A stretch of 63,202 nt of DNA from Candidatus Zixiibacteriota bacterium (GTDB lineage: Bacteria > Zixibacteria > MSB-5A5 > RBG-16-43-9): NCBI GenBank assembly GCA_030692925.1, contig JAUYBY010000078.1:1-63202 (forward strand), written 5' to 3'. Below, piece after piece: positions 37,481-62,983 of the stretch (position 1 is the first letter of the stretch; each line of letters opens with the position of its first letter). The notes beneath the pieces are model-generated. The model did no database searches. It was not told the DNA's origin and worked only from the letters and a program-made list of their open reading frames with translations. Made by a program: the position numbers and the translations under genes.

Positions 37481-38371
37481 CTATCTCAGATCATAAAGTT
37501 TATCAAATAAAACCAGTTGCGACGAATAATAAACCAGCCGGTAAAATGACCTGAACAAGCTGTAAGCTTGCTGCACGAGAAATAAAGATAATATCAGCAA
37601 TTTATCCGCTGGTATAAAATGCAAAATTTTGCTCAGCCCGAGATAAGCAATCAAAGTTCCTAAAAGAATCAGGCTCAAAAGATAATAAAGTAAAACCGTC
37701 CTTCCAAAATTCCTGAAGATAAACCTTAAGCTCGGTATTAAAATCGCCCTTAGTTTCCTCTCTTCAGAAGTGACCCTATAAATCCTTAGGTAATCCCCCC
37801 ACATATCCACCAGCATAAATAACAGCGCAAAGATGACCAGCCCGGTGATGAGAACTAAAACGTGACCCGTTACTGAAAGCTCCTTCCCTGCTATTGCCTG
37901 AATTAAAGAAAAGATCAACATCCCCAGGATGAAAGCCAGTATGTAAATTACACAAATGAAAATGAAAATCTTAAAAAAGCTCCAGAAATATTTACCGCAG
38001 TCTCCGAAGAATTTTTCACCTTTGAATCTCTGTTTGCCTTCTCTTAGATTTTGGAAGAGTGCTCCCCACAAACCTCCGGAGAGGAATATATAACCGAGTA
38101 TAGAGATTAAAATGATAAAAAGAAATAAAACCCGGTATAAGCCTATGCTCTTGTTCCAGTAAGTAAAGAAATCCACCAGCAGAGAAAAATCATACCCCTT
38201 AAGAAAATTATTAGCCAAAGGAGACAAGGAGAAAGTTCTGGCGAACATGTAATAGGCAGGGATCAAAAGACAAAATGCAAAAAACACCTTGAATAAAAAC
38301 AAGATCAGAGCCAAGATTTTATTCTCCCAAACTCTGGCAATGCCATTCCTGAACGCTTCCCACATAGCCAT
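37481..38371 (-). CDS. hypothetical integral membrane protein
   Basis: about 6 hydrophobic segments; directly downstream of the M1 peptidase. Confidence 0.8.
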   Translation of the reverse strand: MAMWEAFRNGIARVWENKILALILFLFKVFFAFCLLIPAYYMFARTFSLSPLANNFLKGYDFSLLVDFFTYWNKSIGLYRVLFLFIILISILGYIFLSGGLWGALFQNLREGKQRFKGEKFFGDCGKYFWSFFKIFIFICVIYILAFILGMLIFSLIQAIAGKELSVTGHVLVLITGLVIFALLFMLVDMWGDYLRIYRVTSEERKLRAILIPSLRFIFRNFGRTVLLYYLLSLILLGTLIAYLGLSKILHFIPADKLLILSLFLVQQAYSLFRSFYRLVYYSSQLVLFDKLYDLR

Positions 38372-38375
38372 CTTT

Positions 38376-38428
38376 TACCTACTACCTATCATCTATTACC
38401 TACCACCTATTACCTACAACCTACCACC
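38376..38428. repeat. heptamer tandem repeat (TTACCTA/CTACCTA-like)
   Basis: 7-nt periodic TACCTA core; similar tracts at ~36388-36414, ~48800-48835, ~59250-59303. Confidence 0.75.
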
Positions 38429-38433
38429 TTTTT

Positions 38434-45200: not shown

Positions 45201-46181
45201 ATGCCGGAATTATTCTTCAAAACTCCTATGGAAAGTAAACATCCGGAGGAAAAAGGTAAGGTTTATGATTTGATAATCCTGGGCGGGGGCCCTGCAGGAC
45301 TATCTGCAGCACTTTACGCTGGACGAGCCAGGCTGGATACCCTTTTGATAGAAAAAAATCTGCCCGGAGGACAGATCTCGATTACCGATTGGGTGGAGAA
45401 CTATCCCGGTTTCCCGGAAGGTATAACCGGGCTGGACCTTGCAAAAAAATTTGAGGATCATGCCAGGAAATTCGGAACCAGGATAGTTCTGGAGGAAGTG
45501 GTGGATGTGGACCTCAAATCAGAGCCTAAGATTATTAAGACCTCTCAGGGAGAGTATCGTGCACACGCTATAATTTTAGCCACTGGAAACGAGCCCAGGA
45601 AATTAAATATACCGGGGGAGGAGAAATTTAAAGGCAAGGGTGTATCTTATTGCGCCACCTGTGATGGGCCCTTTTTCAAAGATAAAGACATAGTCATTGT
45701 GGGATGCGGAAATTCCGGGGTTCAGGAAGGACTTTATCTTTTGCGGTTTGTAAAGAGCATCACCTTTGTGGAACGCCTTCAATGTCACAATGCGGAAAAA
45801 ATCCTGATGGAGAGGGCATTGAAAGAGCCGAAGATGAAATTTTATTATGAGCATGAGCTGGTCTCCATTGACGGTAAGGATAAAGTGGAATCTGTAACTG
45901 CCATTAATCTGAAGACCAAGGAGAAAATGGTGATCCCCGTTCAGGGCGTCTTTTTCTACGTAGGATTAGTGCCAAAAACTGAATTCCTGAGAGGAAAGGT
46001 AGACTGCGATCCTTACTGCTATGTCATCTGTAACGAGAACTCCTGCACCTCAGTCCCGGGAGTTTTTGCAGCAGGTGATGTGAGAATGAAAGACGTCAAG
46101 CAGATAGTTACCGCAGTGGCAGAGGGCGCTATTGCGGCAACTATGGCCTTGAAGTATCTGGAAGGGAAAAAGGAAATGTAG
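45201..46181 (+). CDS. trxB: thioredoxin-disulfide reductase
   Basis: GGGPAGLSAA, ENYPGF, GVSYCATCDG, GVFAAGDV. Confidence 0.94.
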   Translation: MPELFFKTPMESKHPEEKGKVYDLIILGGGPAGLSAALYAGRARLDTLLIEKNLPGGQISITDWVENYPGFPEGITGLDLAKKFEDHARKFGTRIVLEEVVDVDLKSEPKIIKTSQGEYRAHAIILATGNEPRKLNIPGEEKFKGKGVSYCATCDGPFFKDKDIVIVGCGNSGVQEGLYLLRFVKSITFVERLQCHNAEKILMERALKEPKMKFYYEHELVSIDGKDKVESVTAINLKTKEKMVIPVQGVFFYVGLVPKTEFLRGKVDCDPYCYVICNENSCTSVPGVFAAGDVRMKDVKQIVTAVAEGAIAATMALKYLEGKKEM

Positions 46182-57206: not shown

Positions 57207-58664
57207 CTAAAAAATTGAATTATAAGCTAAATTTAACAGTTCCTGTGGTAAAATCCCCAAAGCTAAAATCCCTATCCCTGTTAATAATATAACTAACCCT
57301 AAGGAAAATGGTATGGAAACCGGTTTGACCTCTTCTGCTGAAGGTCGCATAAACATATAGACAATTACTCTCAGATAATAATACACTGAGATCAAACTGT
57401 TAATCACCGCAATTATCACCAAACCCAAATATCCAGACTTTATTGCGGAGCTGAAGATATAGAATTTGGCAAAAAAACCAGCAGTAGGCGGAAAACCTGC
57501 TAAGGAGAGCATAAAGATAGCCATAAACACACCTAAGAACGGATTTTTCAAACCTGCACCAGCATATTCCTTGTAAAGGTCTGTCCCCTCTTTTTCCTTT
57601 GACCCCATTGAGATGATGACCGCAAAGGCACCCAAGTTCATCAGGATATATGCGGATAAGTAGAACAAAACGCCGGATATGGCTGAATTACTGCCTGATA
57701 CGAAAGCGATCAGAATGTATCCGCCATGAGCGATTGAAGAATAAGCTAAGAGTCTTTTCAGATTAGTCTGCCATAAGGCTAAAAGATTCCCGGTGGTCAT
57801 CGAGAGAACCGCTAAAATCCAGAAGATCAAAGTCCAGTCAGGTTTAATCGAGGAAAAAGCTAAGAGAAAAATCCTTAAAAGCGCAGCAAATCCAGCCGCC
57901 TTTGGTCCCGCGGAGATGAAACCTGCAATCGGCGTAGGAGCGCCCTCGAAAACGTCCGGCATCCACATATGAAAAGGAACCGAGGCGATCTTGAAACCGA
58001 AGCCGACGATTAAAAACCCAATCCCGGCATAAAGCAGAAACTCGCTTGCGCCTGCAAAAACGCCACTGAAAGGAGCCAAGAACAATATCTTCTCTAAATT
58101 AGTCGTGCCGAAATTCCCGTAAATCAAGGCAATGCCGAAGATCAGGAAACTGGTGGCAAAAGAGCCCATCAGGAAAAACTTCATCGAGGCTTCGTTCGAC
58201 TTCGGATCTTTCTTCCTGAAACCGGACAGGATGTATAGAGAAACAGAGACTATCTCCAGCCCTAAGAAGATGACTATCAGGTCGAAACTGGAAGCCATCA
58301 GCATCATACCCAGAGTGGCGAAAAGCAGCAGGGCATAATAATCCCCCCGCACCTGCTCTTCTCTTTTGAGGAAGCTTATAGATAGAAGCACCACTAAAAA
58401 AGAGCTGATCAGGAAAATGAAGGAGAAAAACAAAGCGAAATTGTCAGCCAGCGCCATGCCATTGAATCCGGAAAAGCCCGAGCCGAAAAGGTTCACCGAG
58501 AAAAAGAAAGAAAGGGCAATGCCTATCCAGGCAAGATGCGGTAAAATCCCTTTCTTGTCCTTTGGCAGAAAAGCTTCCAGAAGTAAAAGTACAAATCCGA
58601 AAACCGCCAGAATGATTTGTGGAGTTATCACCTGCCAGTTAATATCAATTAAACTTAAATCCAT
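57207..58664 (-). CDS. nuoN: NADH-quinone oxidoreductase subunit N
   Basis: EASMKFF, FKIASVPFHMW.PDV.EGAP, KRLLAYSSIAH, SLAGFPP.AGF..K, YYYLR. Confidence 0.95.
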   Translation of the reverse strand: MDLSLIDINWQVITPQIILAVFGFVLLLLEAFLPKDKKGILPHLAWIGIALSFFFSVNLFGSGFSGFNGMALADNFALFFSFIFLISSFLVVLLSISFLKREEQVRGDYYALLLFATLGMMLMASSFDLIVIFLGLEIVSVSLYILSGFRKKDPKSNEASMKFFLMGSFATSFLIFGIALIYGNFGTTNLEKILFLAPFSGVFAGASEFLLYAGIGFLIVGFGFKIASVPFHMWMPDVFEGAPTPIAGFISAGPKAAGFAALLRIFLLAFSSIKPDWTLIFWILAVLSMTTGNLLALWQTNLKRLLAYSSIAHGGYILIAFVSGSNSAISGVLFYLSAYILMNLGAFAVIISMGSKEKEGTDLYKEYAGAGLKNPFLGVFMAIFMLSLAGFPPTAGFFAKFYIFSSAIKSGYLGLVIIAVINSLISVYYYLRVIVYMFMRPSAEEVKPVSIPFSLGLVILLTGIGILALGILPQELLNLAYNSIF

Positions 58665-58838
58665 ATTATCCTTTTTTATATTCCCCTCCCTTGATGGGAG
58701 GGGTAAGGGGGCGTAGCCTCCCTAACCCTCTCCCACAAGCCGTTAAAAGCCTTACGGTCCTACGGAGGCTTCGCTCCTCGTAGAGGGGAGAGGGAATTCG
58801 TCTAACGTCTCCCTTCTCCCGTCTTACTTGCCTTATTT

Positions 58839-58985
58839 TGCTCCTTGTTGGTCTCCTGACCAACGAGGCTCCGCTGGTGGGGACACCAACGGAGAGCACA
58901 ATAGGTTTTTGTAGCGGAGGTCTTCAGACCTCCATCTTTTTTTATGGAAGGCTAAAGTCTCAAGACCTTGACGGCCTTCCGCTAC
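58839..58985. repeat. GTTGG-type REP doublet followed by a GTAGCGGAGG...CCTTCCGCTAC doublet with a 17-nt insert
   Basis: A at 58847, B at 58873; GTAG doublet 58911-58985. Confidence 0.82.
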
Positions 58986-58995
58986 ATTTAAGTCT

Positions 58996-59012
58996 CCCAA
59001 CCACCGGCTGGG
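58996..59012 (-). other. putative bacterial SECIS hairpin
   Basis: CCCAGCC-GGU-GGUUGGG stem-loop beginning 11 nt after the in-frame UGA at 59026-59024. Confidence 0.7.
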
Positions 59013-59014
59013 CA

Positions 59015-59230
59015 TTAAAATCCTCACGTTCCTCCAAACCCGACTGTTACCTTTCCATCTTCCACCATCACCGGAACCGCTTTTTTCCCTGCCAGCTTAA
59101 TGAGCTCTTCCTGAAACTCCGGGTTTTTCACCACGTCGATTTCTTTATATTTTGTCCCCTGCCTGTCCAGATGCCTCTTCAAAGCCGCTGAGTAAGGGCA
59201 TCCTTCTTTAATATATATGCTAACCGCCAT
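59015..59230 (-). CDS. glutaredoxin-like selenoprotein (UXX-star type), ending GFGGT-U-G-F-stop
   Basis: AGGAGGAGG RBS and ATG at 59230; CPYS, VPV, GF glutaredoxin motifs; TGA GGA TTT TAA at the 3' end. Confidence 0.8.
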
Positions 59231-59303
59231 ACCTCCTCCTTTTCCTATCACCTATTACCTATTACCTATCTCCTACTACCTATGACCTATTACCTACCAC
59301 CTA

Positions 59304-60908
59304 TCACCTTAAGTTTAAAACCGACTCCTCTGTGCATCTTCTCAGCTCAAATTTAACATATCCTGCTGGCTCATCTTTCGCTTCGCATATCTCATCGAAC
59401 TTTTTCTCACAGGAAGACATCTGTTCAGATTTATAATTCACATATTCCAGCATATTCTTCACCGCAGGCTCTATCTTTGACAAAAACGACTGTGGATAGA
59501 TCCCGATCCAGAAAATCAAAAGAACTATCGGGATTAAAGTTATCTTCTCCCGGAGATTCAAATCCAGAAGGTTTTTGTTCTCCTCCTTTTTTATCTCCTG
59601 GAAAAGAACTCTCTGGATCATCCAGAGCATATAGACCGCGGCTAAGATGATTCCAACAGCTCCCAGTACTGCATACACTGTTTTTGATTTAAAAGCTCCT
59701 AAGAGGATTAAGAATTCTCCCACGAAACCGTTTGTCCCTGGCAGCCCGATAGAGGACAAGGTGACGATGATTAAAAATGTCGCAAAAACCGGAACAACTC
59801 TGGCAATCCCTCCATACTCCTCTATCAGACGGGTATGTCTCCTCTCGTAGATCATCCCCACGATTAAAAACAAAGCGCCTGTGGAGATGCCGTGATTGAT
59901 CATCTGCAGAATACCGCCTGAGATCCCCTGCATATTCAGGGCAAAAAGACCTAACATCACAAAACCCAAATGGCTCACGCTGGAAAAGGCCACCAGGCTT
60001 TTTATGTCTTTCTGCATGGTGGAGACTAAAGCCCCGTAGATTATTCCGATTATCGCTAAGATGGAGAAAAGCGGGACGAAATTCATAAAAGCATTCGGGA
60101 ACAAGGGCAGACAGAATCTTAAGAAACCGTAAGTCCCCATTTTCAGCAAAACCCCGGCTAAAAGTACGCTTCCTGCGGTTGGTGCCTCCACGTGAGCGTC
60201 CGGAAGCCAGGTATGAAAAGGAAACATCGGAACCTTGATGGCGAAAGCTAAGGCAAAGGCTAAGAATAACCAGAACTGTGCCCCAAAGGGAATCGGAAGC
60301 TGGAGAATTTTCAGCAGGTCAAAGCTGTATTCTCCGGTGTAGTTATAATTCATAAAATAGAGGACTAAAATAGCCACTAACATAAAAATGCTACCTAACA
60401 TAGTGAAAAGGATAAATTTGATGGTAGCATAAATCTTACGAGGACCACCCCAGATTCCAATCAGGAAATACATCGGGATAAGCATCCCTTCCCAGAAAAC
60501 ATAGAACAAAAACAGGTCCAAACTGACAAAAACGCCGATCATCCCGGCTTCTAAGAAAAGCATAGTGACCATATACCCCTTTACCTTTTCCTGAATTGCA
60601 CTCCAGGATGAAAGTATAGCCAGAGATGAAAGGAAAGTGGTCAACAATACCAGAAACAAACTTATGCCGTCAATACCCAGATGATAATTTATCCCCAGAC
60701 TTTGGACCCAAGATTGGTTGACCTCAAACTGAAACCCGTTCTCCGGGACGAAATTAAAATAAAGGTAAAGGGACAGGATAAAATTTATTAAAGCTATAAC
60801 AAAGGCAAAAGATTTTATTAGCCCACCTTTCTCTTTATTTACCAGCAAAAGCAAGAGCGCGCCAGCTATCGGAACAAAAACCAGCAATGTTAAGATATAC
60901 TCTGACAT
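59304..60908 (-). CDS. nuoM: NADH-quinone oxidoreductase subunit M
   Basis: [58 protein letters not shown]. Confidence 0.96.
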
Positions 60909-61075: not shown

Positions 61076-62983
61076 TCACCTCAATATGAAATAAGCCAGA
61101 ATCAGGAGCACGCCGAAAACCATCCCTAAGGCATAGTTGCGCACGTACCCGGTCTGGACTTTTCTGCCGATGCCTGCAAACCAGTTAACTGTATTGGCTA
61201 ACCCATTGGCGATTCCATCGATTACTTTCACGTCAAAGAATTGCCAGAGGAAAGTAGCAAACTTGAGCAACGGGTTGACAACTATCTTGAAGTAAAGCTC
61301 ATCCACATAATATTTGTTCAAAAGAAGTTTATAAGGAAAACTGAATCTCTGTGCTAAGCTCTTCGGAAGGTCTGGACTCTTGATATAAAATCTGTAAGCA
61401 AAGAAAATACCCAGTAAAGCTACGACCACCGAAAGTGCCATCAGAAGATATTCAGTAGAAGCTGGATGTAAAGCTATCTCTCCTTTCTCACCAAACACCG
61501 GACTCAAAAAGCTTTCGAAGTTATTCCCGCCTCCAAGCGATTTTGGAACTCCAATGTATCCTCCGATAACTGAGAGGACTGCCAGGACCATCAGAGGAAC
61601 AATCATTATCTTTGGGGACTCGTGGATATGAGATTTTATCGATTCATCCACTCTTGACTTTCCAAAGAAGGTCAAAAAGAAGAGCCTGAACATATAGAAA
61701 GCGGTCATTCCTGCAGTGACCAATCCGATAATCCACAAGATTAAATTACCCTGAGAAAATGCTTTCCACAGAATCTCATCCTTGCTGAAGAAACCGGAGA
61801 ATAAAGGTATCCCGGAGATGGCTAAGACTGCGGCAAACATCGTCCAGAACGTAACCGGCAGTTTGTTCTTCAGCTCTCCCATCTTCTGCATATTCAGCTC
61901 GCCTGATAGAGCATGCATCACGCAGCCTGCACCTAAGAAGAGCAAAGCCTTGAAAAAAGCATGAGTCATCAGGTGAAATATCCCTGAGGCAAATGCACCT
62001 ACTCCACAACCCAGGAACATATAACCAAGCTGGCTGATAGTTGAATAAGCCAGAACCCTTTTTATGTCGTTTTGAACCATACCGATTGAAGCGGTGTAAA
62101 GTGCGGTAACAGCCCCGATGACTGCAACCAGACCCATAGTGAAAGGAGCAAGCTGGAAAAGAACGTGACACCTGGCTACCATATAGACACCAGCAGTCAC
62201 CATTGTCGCCGCATGGATTAAAGCAGAAACCGGAGTTGGTCCTTCCATTGCATCCGGCAGCCAGACATAGAGCGGAATCTGGGCAGACTTCCCCACTGCT
62301 CCCGCAAATAGAAGCAGGGTGATTGCAGTTGCCAGCCCGCCACCCAAGGTGAGAATAGAAGGAGCCTGTAAGAACACGTCTGAATAGTTGAGCGTACCGA
62401 AGGTCCAGAAGATGAGCATAATTCCTAAGGCAAATCCAAAATCTCCAATCCGGTTGACGATGAAAGCCTTTTTAGCCGCATCTGAGGCAGACTTCTTTTC
62501 ATACCAGAAGCCTATCAGAAGGTAAGAGCATAAACCCACGCCTTCCCAGCCCAAATAAAGTAAAAGGAAGTTGTTGGACAAAACCAGGGTCAGCATAAAG
62601 AAGACGAAAAGGTTCATAAAGGAGAAAAATCTGGCAAAACCCTTGTCCTCACCCATATAACCGATGGAATAGACGTGAATGAAAAAACCGACTCCGGAAA
62701 CCACTAAAATCATCACACAGGATAAGGGGTCCAAAAGAAAAGAGACATTGACCTTGAAAAGCCCGGAATAAATCCAGGGGAATACCACTCTCTCGATAAT
62801 CCTATGCTCTGCAGGGAGAGACAGAAGCTCAAAGAGAATTTTAACGGAGATAAGGAAGGAAACCCCGATTGTGCCACAACCGATCAAGGAAACCAGGGTC
62901 TTCCCCAATCTTCTCCCCAAAATCCCGTTGATGACAAACCCTATTAAGGGAAGCAGAGGTATTAACCACACATATTCGATCAT
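61076..62983 (-). CDS. nuoL: NADH-quinone oxidoreductase subunit L
   Basis: GWEGVGLCSYLLIGFW, KSAQ.PL.VWLPDAMEGPTPVSALIHAATMVTAGVY, HLMTHAFFKALLF, GFFSKD. Confidence 0.97.
   Translation of the reverse strand: MIEYVWLIPLLPLIGFVINGILGRRLGKTLVSLIGCGTIGVSFLISVKILFELLSLPAEHRIIERVVFPWIYSGLFKVNVSFLLDPLSCVMILVVSGVGFFIHVYSIGYMGEDKGFARFFSFMNLFVFFMLTLVLSNNFLLLYLGWEGVGLCSYLLIGFWYEKKSASDAAKKAFIVNRIGDFGFALGIMLIFWTFGTLNYSDVFLQAPSILTLGGGLATAITLLLFAGAVGKSAQIPLYVWLPDAMEGPTPVSALIHAATMVTAGVYMVARCHVLFQLAPFTMGLVAVIGAVTALYTASIGMVQNDIKRVLAYSTISQLGYMFLGCGVGAFASGIFHLMTHAFFKALLFLGAGCVMHALSGELNMQKMGELKNKLPVTFWTMFAAVLAISGIPLFSGFFSKDEILWKAFSQGNLILWIIGLVTAGMTAFYMFRLFFLTFFGKSRVDESIKSHIHESPKIMIVPLMVLAVLSVIGGYIGVPKSLGGGNNFESFLSPVFGEKGEIALHPASTEYLLMALSVVVALLGIFFAYRFYIKSPDLPKSLAQRFSFPYKLLLNKYYVDELYFKIVVNPLLKFATFLWQFFDVKVIDGIANGLANTVNWFAGIGRKVQTGYVRNYALGMVFGVLLILAYFILR

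Follow-up and report, generated by a model that had tools for sequence, protein, structure and literature searches.

The window analysed here, the whole 63,202-nt stretch of contig JAUYBY010000078.1 from a Candidatus Zixiibacteriota bacterium (assembly GCA_030692925.1), carries on its minus strand a short glutaredoxin-like gene, here grxU, between nuoM and nuoN. The coding sequence occupies 59015-59230 and comprises 71 codons and a TAA stop (ORF, i.e., open reading frame, reading; NF041212; PF00462), with the ATG at 59230-59228 and the TAA at 59017-59015. A Shine-Dalgarno-like stretch, AGGAGGAGG (59232-59240, minus strand), was read directly from the sequence immediately 5' of the ATG, and homologues use the same start Met. 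The translation begins MAVSIYIKEGCPYS and reaches ...VTVGFGGT before a TGA at 59026-59024 (minus strand). A preliminary reading of the letters and their ORFs (the sequence-only reading) had pointed out that the frame goes on past this TGA with GGA TTT TAA and that the active site is CPYS; both are present, the latter as C11-P-Y-S14 at 59189-59200 (minus strand), in which C11 is invariant among 44 aligned sequences. With TGA translated as selenocysteine (Sec, U), the product has 71 residues and ends in GFGGT-U-G-F.

A Uxx-star glutaredoxin-like protein with an in-frame UGA

GrxU is almost certainly a genuine Uxx-star selenoprotein, a fresh member of an already catalogued family. It scored 100.3 bits against NF041212 (NCBIfam "Uxx-star family glutaredoxin-like (seleno)protein"; cut-off 66), with residues 3-71 aligned to positions 1-70 of the 70-position profile, so that the assignment to UXX-star proteins made earlier from the letters holds over the full length of a curated model; the Pfam glutaredoxin domain PF00462 was matched with 59 bits. 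The scores remained below the cut-offs of all three subfamilies, i.e., UXX-star family 1 (NF041114, 68 bits vs 72), family 2 (NF041211, 67.1 bits vs 100) and family 3 (NF047338, 68.2 bits vs 97), and GrxU has a Cys in its CPYS motif and no second Sec in an N-terminal UxxT. In an excerpt of a recent review (PMC13188914, 2026), UXX-star family 1 is listed as "distant Grx-like protein 1", together with family 2 and an HUGP/GUXX-star fusion, and the Uxx-star families are credited to Zhang and Gladyshev 2008 and Haft and Tolstoy 2025. An AlphaFold2 (AF2) model built on 44 homologues (predicted local distance difference test, pLDDT, 88.7) has the order beta1-alpha1-beta2-alpha2-beta3-beta4 and no third helix, and the nearest structures found by Foldseek are small glutaredoxins and NrdH-redoxins (TMq 0.76-0.84). 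The predicted fold would thus be a minimal thioredoxin fold without the classical C-terminal glutaredoxin helix, ending in a Gly-rich tail, GFGGT-U-G-F-COOH.

The UGA at codon 69 (59024-59026, minus strand) is matched by a TGA at the same column in every homologous locus that was read through. Homologues were taken from a genome collection (contigs with one genome per species; 19 loci, two of which are unrelated hits) and from genomes of the same phylum (56 grxU loci besides the one in the window). The layout TGA-x-x-stop was found at 17 of the 19 collection loci, all 17 ending in ...G-G-x-U-x-x, and at 56 of the 56 phylum loci. The true stop stays at +3 codons from the UGA, and the two codons between them vary (GGA TTT, GGT ATA, GAG GTC and others) by synonymous or conservative changes, giving Gly, Ser, Glu or Asp directly after U and Phe, Ile, Val or Tyr at the next position. 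Many homologues (L029-L031, L033-L037, L039, L041 and several phylum loci) also have TGA as the stop of U-x-x, and in these the two UGAs, nine nt apart, would be decoded in two ways, as Sec at the upstream one and as stop at the downstream one, a natural illustration of how strict spacing of the selenocysteine insertion sequence (SECIS) may choose which UGA is recoded.

A scan of 1.84 billion representative proteins returned 449 relatives of GrxU at E <= 0.001. Among 30 close database matches, 27 are 68 aa long and none extends to residue 69. For the Cys/Sec column, 17 of the 449 relatives were fetched and 8 were aligned with GrxU: three (P0035, P0036 and P0106) have a Cys at the Sec column and a C-x-x end, two (P0077 and P0111) have a Cys there followed by a longer tail, and the column holds Thr in P0034 and Ser in P0109. 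In P0171, which has the UxxT...U-x-x form, Trp occupies the two Sec positions, likely because the gene of a double selenoprotein was translated with TGA=W. Inside the phylum, no Cys form of GrxU was seen among the loci that were read. The alignment at the Sec column that the sequence-only reading had proposed as a check thus yielded TGA-x-x-stop in homologues and Cys-x-x-end in some of them. Its description of the selenoprotein as hidden proved apt for the sequence databases, in which 27 of the 30 close matches are cut to 68 aa, but not for the literature or NCBIfam, where the family has a name.

The downstream hairpin and the selenocysteine machinery

A single-copy hairpin found by folding and hairpin search, CCCAGCC-GGU-GGUUGGG (58996-59012, minus strand; 7-bp stem, GGU loop), starts exactly 11 nt past the A of the UGA and 2 nt past the TAA. 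It is the GC-rich hairpin with a G-containing loop that had been placed 11 nt after the UGA, there mostly in the 3' untranslated region (UTR); it lies wholly in the 3' UTR, because the true stop follows only two codons past the UGA. As expected of a bacterial SECIS, this stem-loop is close to the UGA on its 3' side and has G/U in its apical loop. A blastn search of the own genome located the segment 58995-59014 nowhere else, in contrast to up to 63 other copies for the remainder of the spacer that separates grxU from nuoN. Scanned against Rfam, 58500-59400 produced two matches only, both below threshold and attributable to chance.

At the same spacing, perfect-stem hairpins of <= -9.7 kcal/mol were counted after 80 of the 1919 stops of long frames in the own genome, and for random positions the count was 52 of 5000; when a GT-containing loop was added as a criterion, 7 of the 1919 stops remained. 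Mononucleotide shuffles of the 57 nt downstream in the window matched the native hairpin in 2 of 200 cases, and an 81-nt fold spanning the UGA (58960-59040) was unremarkable (z -0.88). The hairpin by itself is therefore no more than suggestive, and it becomes significant because it is conserved in homologues. A perfect-stem hairpin lies 8-15 nt past the UGA in 41 of 45 distinct homologous downstream sequences, so that the bacterial SECIS spacing noted earlier in the window holds among its relatives, and the stem sequences are unrelated to each other. The loop contains GU in 35 of these 41 hairpins (GGUC in 13), and in 38 of the 41 no more than 10 of 200 shuffles equalled the native structure.

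Several points weigh against this reading of the UGA and the hairpin. Four of the 45 downstream sequences (L066, L067, L076 and L077) lack a perfect-stem hairpin under the strict definition, and three further homologous hairpins were equalled by 13-20 of 200 shuffles. No consensus structure was predicted by MAFFT and RNAalifold from 15 unaligned downstream regions, because a sequence-based alignment leaves the hairpins out of register; the case for SECIS covariation therefore comes from the hairpin search in each sequence. Sec insertion at UGA 69 is, moreover, a conclusion from comparative evidence and not from experiment.

The genome (2.41 Mb in 112 contigs, 91% complete) contains the genes for Sec insertion. 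The genes for tRNA-Sec, SelD, SelA and SelB form one compact cluster on a single contig (C80:7343-12227; L001, L009, L010 and L015), and each of the four exceeds the cut-off of its family. The tRNA-Sec has the anticodon tca (65.6 bits) and was called SeC by ARAGORN, and SelA and SelB reached 572 and 420 bits, respectively. The four genes that the sequence-only reading had named for a search, selA, selB, selC and selD, were all found in this cluster. The selD gene has one in-frame TGA itself, so that SelD would also be a selenoprotein in this genome.

We regard it as very improbable that the UGA at 59026-59024 is an ordinary stop, i.e., that the product is a 68-residue monothiol glutaredoxin and the hairpin an unrelated 3' structure. 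Gene callers terminate at this codon, as the length of most database relatives attests, an equally strong hairpin follows about 4% of the long-frame stops of the own genome, and hairpin repeats fill the spacer beyond the SECIS hairpin; this hairpin, however, matches no genome repeat and has no T run behind it (no minus-strand terminator was found in the scan of the gap). The same reading would also have to explain why the TGA is followed in all homologues by exactly two sense codons and a stop, both codons being conserved at the amino-acid level, why some homologues have a Cys in place of the TGA, why a complete Sec machinery is present in the genome, and why the curated model NF041212 covers the final three residues. 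Thus, UGA 69 of grxU is almost certainly read as selenocysteine; in the proposed mechanism it would be decoded by SelB and Sec-tRNA(Sec), directed by the short SECIS hairpin 11 nt downstream. Taken as a whole, the chemistry and role proposed below included, a 71-residue cytoplasmic Uxx-star selenoprotein made by SECIS-directed recoding of a UGA is very probably the best explanation of grxU. A consequence for annotation is that grxU is systematically cut at the UGA in public protein sets, and the presumably redox-active residue of a protein found throughout the phylum is therefore missing from most databases.

Position between nuoM and nuoN

The placement between nuoM and nuoN given by the sequence-only reading was confirmed, with all genes on the minus strand. 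By sequence matching, nuoM (59304-60908, 534 aa) is the upstream gene and nuoN (57207-58664, 485 aa) the downstream gene of the same operon, and nuoL (61076-62983, 635 aa) lies farther upstream. The same reading had suggested comparing the nuo context in relatives, and the arrangement is conserved. A match was found in 111 of 151 sampled genomes of the phylum; after subtraction of four (L079-L082, in G103, G096, G117 and G068) that carry a separate, unrelated Sec-glutaredoxin with an N-terminal U-V-D-C, away from nuo genes, 107 genomes have a grxU orthologue. We examined 57 of these 107 loci (the 30 best, 7 with a match that ended short of the TGA, and 20 from lower ranks and other families; the own locus included), and all 57 adjoin nuoM and/or nuoN, both flanks being visible in 54 and cut by a contig end in three. 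They come from at least 11 families, and the identity of NuoN to that of the window falls to about 43%, which argues that the arrangement nuoM-grxU-nuoN is old. In G089 (locus L093), a complete genome from within the same family, the order is nuoA-B-C-D-(198-aa ORF)-E-F-G-H ... nuoM-grxU-nuoN; the five frames after nuoH were placed by the sizes of nuoI-J-K-L, and nuoL (two frames) matched NuoL of the window, so that the operon is of the full 14-subunit nuo type. The 198-aa ORF between nuoD and nuoE (L093:14061-14657) has no Pfam hit, and in the same genome nuoG is present as two frames (237 and 633 aa), as is nuoL (276 and 397 aa).

Five of the 19 loci from the genome collection are linked to nuo, and their records are labelled Zixibacteria (two), Ignavibacteria (two) and Terriglobales (one); all five appear to be the same lineage. 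One of them, L023 (labelled Terriglobales bacterium), has a GrxU that is 96% identical, NuoL, NuoM and NuoN that are 91-94% identical, and the same gene order, and its label is at odds with the Zixibacteria and Ignavibacteria labels of the other close relatives.

In the window, the spacer between grxU and nuoN is 350 nt long, compared with about 40-100 nt in relatives, and dispersed hairpin repeats account for the difference: at least four repeat segments (58675-58994; blastn, own genome) were found, with 8 to 63 other genome copies each. A terminator-like hairpin on the plus strand (58916-58933) lies within one of these repeats. A promoter and terminator scan of the gap between grxU and nuoN revealed no minus-strand terminator and no promoter-like site, and the lack of a terminator is compatible with co-transcription of nuo and grxU but is not a proof of it. 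On the other side of grxU, a tandem array of the heptamer CCTATCA (9.4 copies, also with a 21-nt unit; 59244-59309) runs across the final codons of nuoM and the spacer; a similar array is located at 38369-38429, and the spacer 5' of grxU has 20 blastn matches in the genome, itself included. NuoM of the window has a soluble-looking C-terminal tail with three Cys, including RRCTEE (59304-59450); the tblastn matches of most relatives end before this tail, which may be genus-specific.

Because grxU is co-oriented with nuoM and nuoN and fixed between them throughout the phylum, we propose that it would most likely be co-expressed with NADH:quinone oxidoreductase (complex I) and would serve it, possibly by keeping thiols of the complex reduced or by removing oxidants that the complex makes. 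A role related to complex I is offered as a tentative reading, possible rather than probable. Several observations count against it. In Methylomirabilota, Myxococcota, Nitrospirota, Thermincola and others, Uxx-star genes have unrelated neighbours and no link to nuo. In five selA-bearing relatives from five families (f3, f7, f8, f10 and f12), nuoM and nuoN abut with no grxU between them, so that grxU is dispensable. NuoN has no conserved Cys. In NuoM, Cys is frequent at two columns; both fall within hydrophobic segments resembling transmembrane helices, and they track the phylogeny. Individually, C266 of NuoM was rejected as a target of GrxU as it also occurs in two of four genomes without grxU, and C425, present in 29 of 39 grxU genomes, was rejected because the own genome lacks it, its surroundings are hydrophobic and its distribution follows the phylogeny. 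Five Uxx-star genes away from nuo were compared and share no context, their neighbours being MgsA, GGDEF, BrkB, CN-hydrolase, a sigma factor and peptidase M20, or having no Pfam hit.

It may well be, and we consider it nearly an even matter, that grxU is a real Uxx-star selenoprotein gene but an old, vertically inherited insertion into nuo that borrows the promoter of the operon, its product being a cytoplasmic thiol/selenol redoxin of general use, without a dedicated task at complex I. This would agree with the absence of nuo and of any common neighbour beside Uxx-star genes elsewhere, with the nuo operons of the five selA-bearing relatives in which nuoM and nuoN abut, and with the failure to find a candidate target Cys in NuoM or NuoN; it accounts less well for the same intergenic site at 57 of 57 loci from at least 11 families, since one would expect a neutral passenger to change place or vanish more often, and for the fact that the nuo-linked forms make up a sequence type of their own vs the UxxT forms elsewhere.

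GrxU is not an obligatory part of complex I: its gene lies within the nuo operon and is co-oriented, but it is not present wherever the complex is, being absent in five of five relatives without a hit. NuoM and NuoN are neighbours in solved structures of complex I, and GrxU could be imagined as a bound accessory subunit of the membrane arm, on the cytoplasmic face at or near the NuoM/NuoN interface. We consider this unlikely; the sole support is the fixed position of the gene between nuoM and nuoN together with its conservation across the phylum, whereas grxU is absent from related nuo operons and neither NuoM nor NuoN yielded exposed residues that co-vary. Slightly less doubtful, though still improbable, is the broader proposal that complex I of Zixibacteria has a dedicated selenoprotein partner, a 7.6-kDa protein of thioredoxin fold with a C-terminal selenol arm, that either binds the membrane arm or acts on the complex specifically, protecting or regulating it; if true, this would be the first case of a respiratory complex I with an accessory factor that depends on selenium. 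No literature on a glutaredoxin at nuoM/nuoN was found by title, nor any on selenocysteine in Zixibacteria by title and abstract, a search whose reach did not extend to Haft and Tolstoy 2025.

Returning to the proposed service of complex I by GrxU, the nuo-fixed clade is the first context we have seen that points Uxx-star proteins to a concrete partner and a testable phenotype. What the locus adds to the existing family entry is the site-specific embedding in nuo across a phylum and the CPYS variant of a single genus.

The proposed redox centre and comparison with known systems

Only four columns, C11, P53, G67 and U69, are invariant among the 44 aligned sequences. Motifs were counted in 49 rows, of which at least three pairs represent the same sequence obtained by two routes. 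The 38 nuo-linked rows have CPYC (30), CPFC (4) or CPYS (4, confined to the own genus), and in the 11 rows of other phyla the motif is UPFT, UPYT, UAFT or UPHT, and once CAFT; the nuo-linked sequence type, CPYC/CPFC/CPYS ... GG-x-U-G-F/I, is thus distinct from the UxxT forms elsewhere.

Since C11 and U69 are the sole invariant redox residues, and since neither the own genus nor the UxxT forms have a second active-site Cys, Cys11 and Sec69 probably form a redox pair that would cycle through an intramolecular selenenylsulfide, broadly as the sequence-only reading had supposed when it paired the Sec with the lone N-terminal Cys. The loss of the second active-site Cys in the own genus (CPYS) would leave Cys11-Sec69 as the sole available pair there, and in the UxxT forms the corresponding pair would be a diselenide. 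By analogy with the C-terminal arm of animal thioredoxin reductase, the Gly-rich tail bearing the Sec may be a mobile resolving or attacking arm. Two reservations apply to this chemistry: the pairing is derived from the pattern of conservation and not from a distance in the model coordinates, and the glutathione branch was searched for with a narrow GshA model (its control match was in E. coli only) in a genome that is 91% complete. The natural change from CPYC to CPYS in the own genus offers a ready comparison for asking whether Sec69 can replace the resolving Cys.

A candidate reductant, the thioredoxin reductase TrxB, is encoded 13 kb from grxU (45264-46160, plus strand; TIGR01292, 364 bits vs a cut-off of 343), and neither GshA nor GshB was found by profile models in the 91%-complete genome. 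On this basis, the reductant of GrxU might more likely be thioredoxin reductase, in an NrdH-like cycle, than glutathione, and the link between TrxB and grxU is drawn with little confidence.

Metal binding is named as a possible role of the Sec of Uxx-star proteins in the excerpted review (PMC13188914), and Sec69 and Cys11 could accordingly be ligands of a metal or metalloid that do not cycle, in a small carrier of metal or selenium. We hold this to be quite unlikely here, as no genes of metal resistance or transport adjoin grxU at any examined locus and the Pro-containing CPYC/CPYS motif is typical of redox-active glutaredoxins. A Pro at this position of the glutaredoxin active site disfavours binding of an Fe-S cluster.

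The closest known system is the Uxx-star family itself (NF041212): GrxU has the length and the glutaredoxin-like fold of its members and, as in them, its Sec is the third residue from the C-terminus, with the stop after two more codons. GrxU differs in scoring below all three subfamily cut-offs, in having CPYS (CPYC or CPFC in the other nuo-linked forms) instead of the UxxT of family 1, and in being fixed in the nuo context within one phylum.

E. coli Grx3 (PDB 3GRX, 1FOV) resembles GrxU in the thioredoxin fold, the CPY(C/S) motif and the cis-Pro VP motif (phmmer E 1.3e-7; Foldseek TMq 0.84). However, GrxU reached only 40.6 bits against the Grx3 model TIGR02181 (cut-off 90), GshA and GshB were not found in its 91%-complete genome, and the C-terminal helix that follows the GG motif in Grx3 is replaced in the predicted structure of GrxU by the 8-residue Gly-rich Sec tail.

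NrdH-redoxins are glutaredoxin-like proteins reduced by thioredoxin reductase, and reduction of GrxU by the same kind of enzyme is plausible. The NrdH structures (PDB 1H75, 4FIW) are similar in size and fold (TMq 0.79-0.81; phmmer E 1.9e-6), but GrxU scored 40.4 bits against TIGR02194 (cut-off 85.75) and has no nrd context, its neighbours being nuoM and nuoN, and NrdH has neither a Sec nor a tail of the GrxU type.

In animal thioredoxin reductase, the C-terminal Gly-Cys-Sec-Gly arm carries electrons from the buried redox centre to substrates. Both proteins have their Sec close to the C-terminal carboxylate, in a flexible tail rich in Gly, with the SECIS necessarily in the 3' UTR; they differ in fold and domain of life, which are unrelated, and in GrxU the partner of the Sec would be a Cys in its own thioredoxin-fold site and the SECIS is of the bacterial, SelB type.

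Mitochondrial Grx2, as far as excerpts of the literature on the glutathionylation of NDUFS1 describe it, is likewise a protein with a glutaredoxin fold that is functionally tied to NADH:quinone oxidoreductase. It depends on glutathione, has no Sec, is encoded apart from complex I and has the hydrophilic arm as its site of action, so that Grx2 and NDUFS1 offer a precedent for the action of a glutaredoxin on complex I by analogy only.

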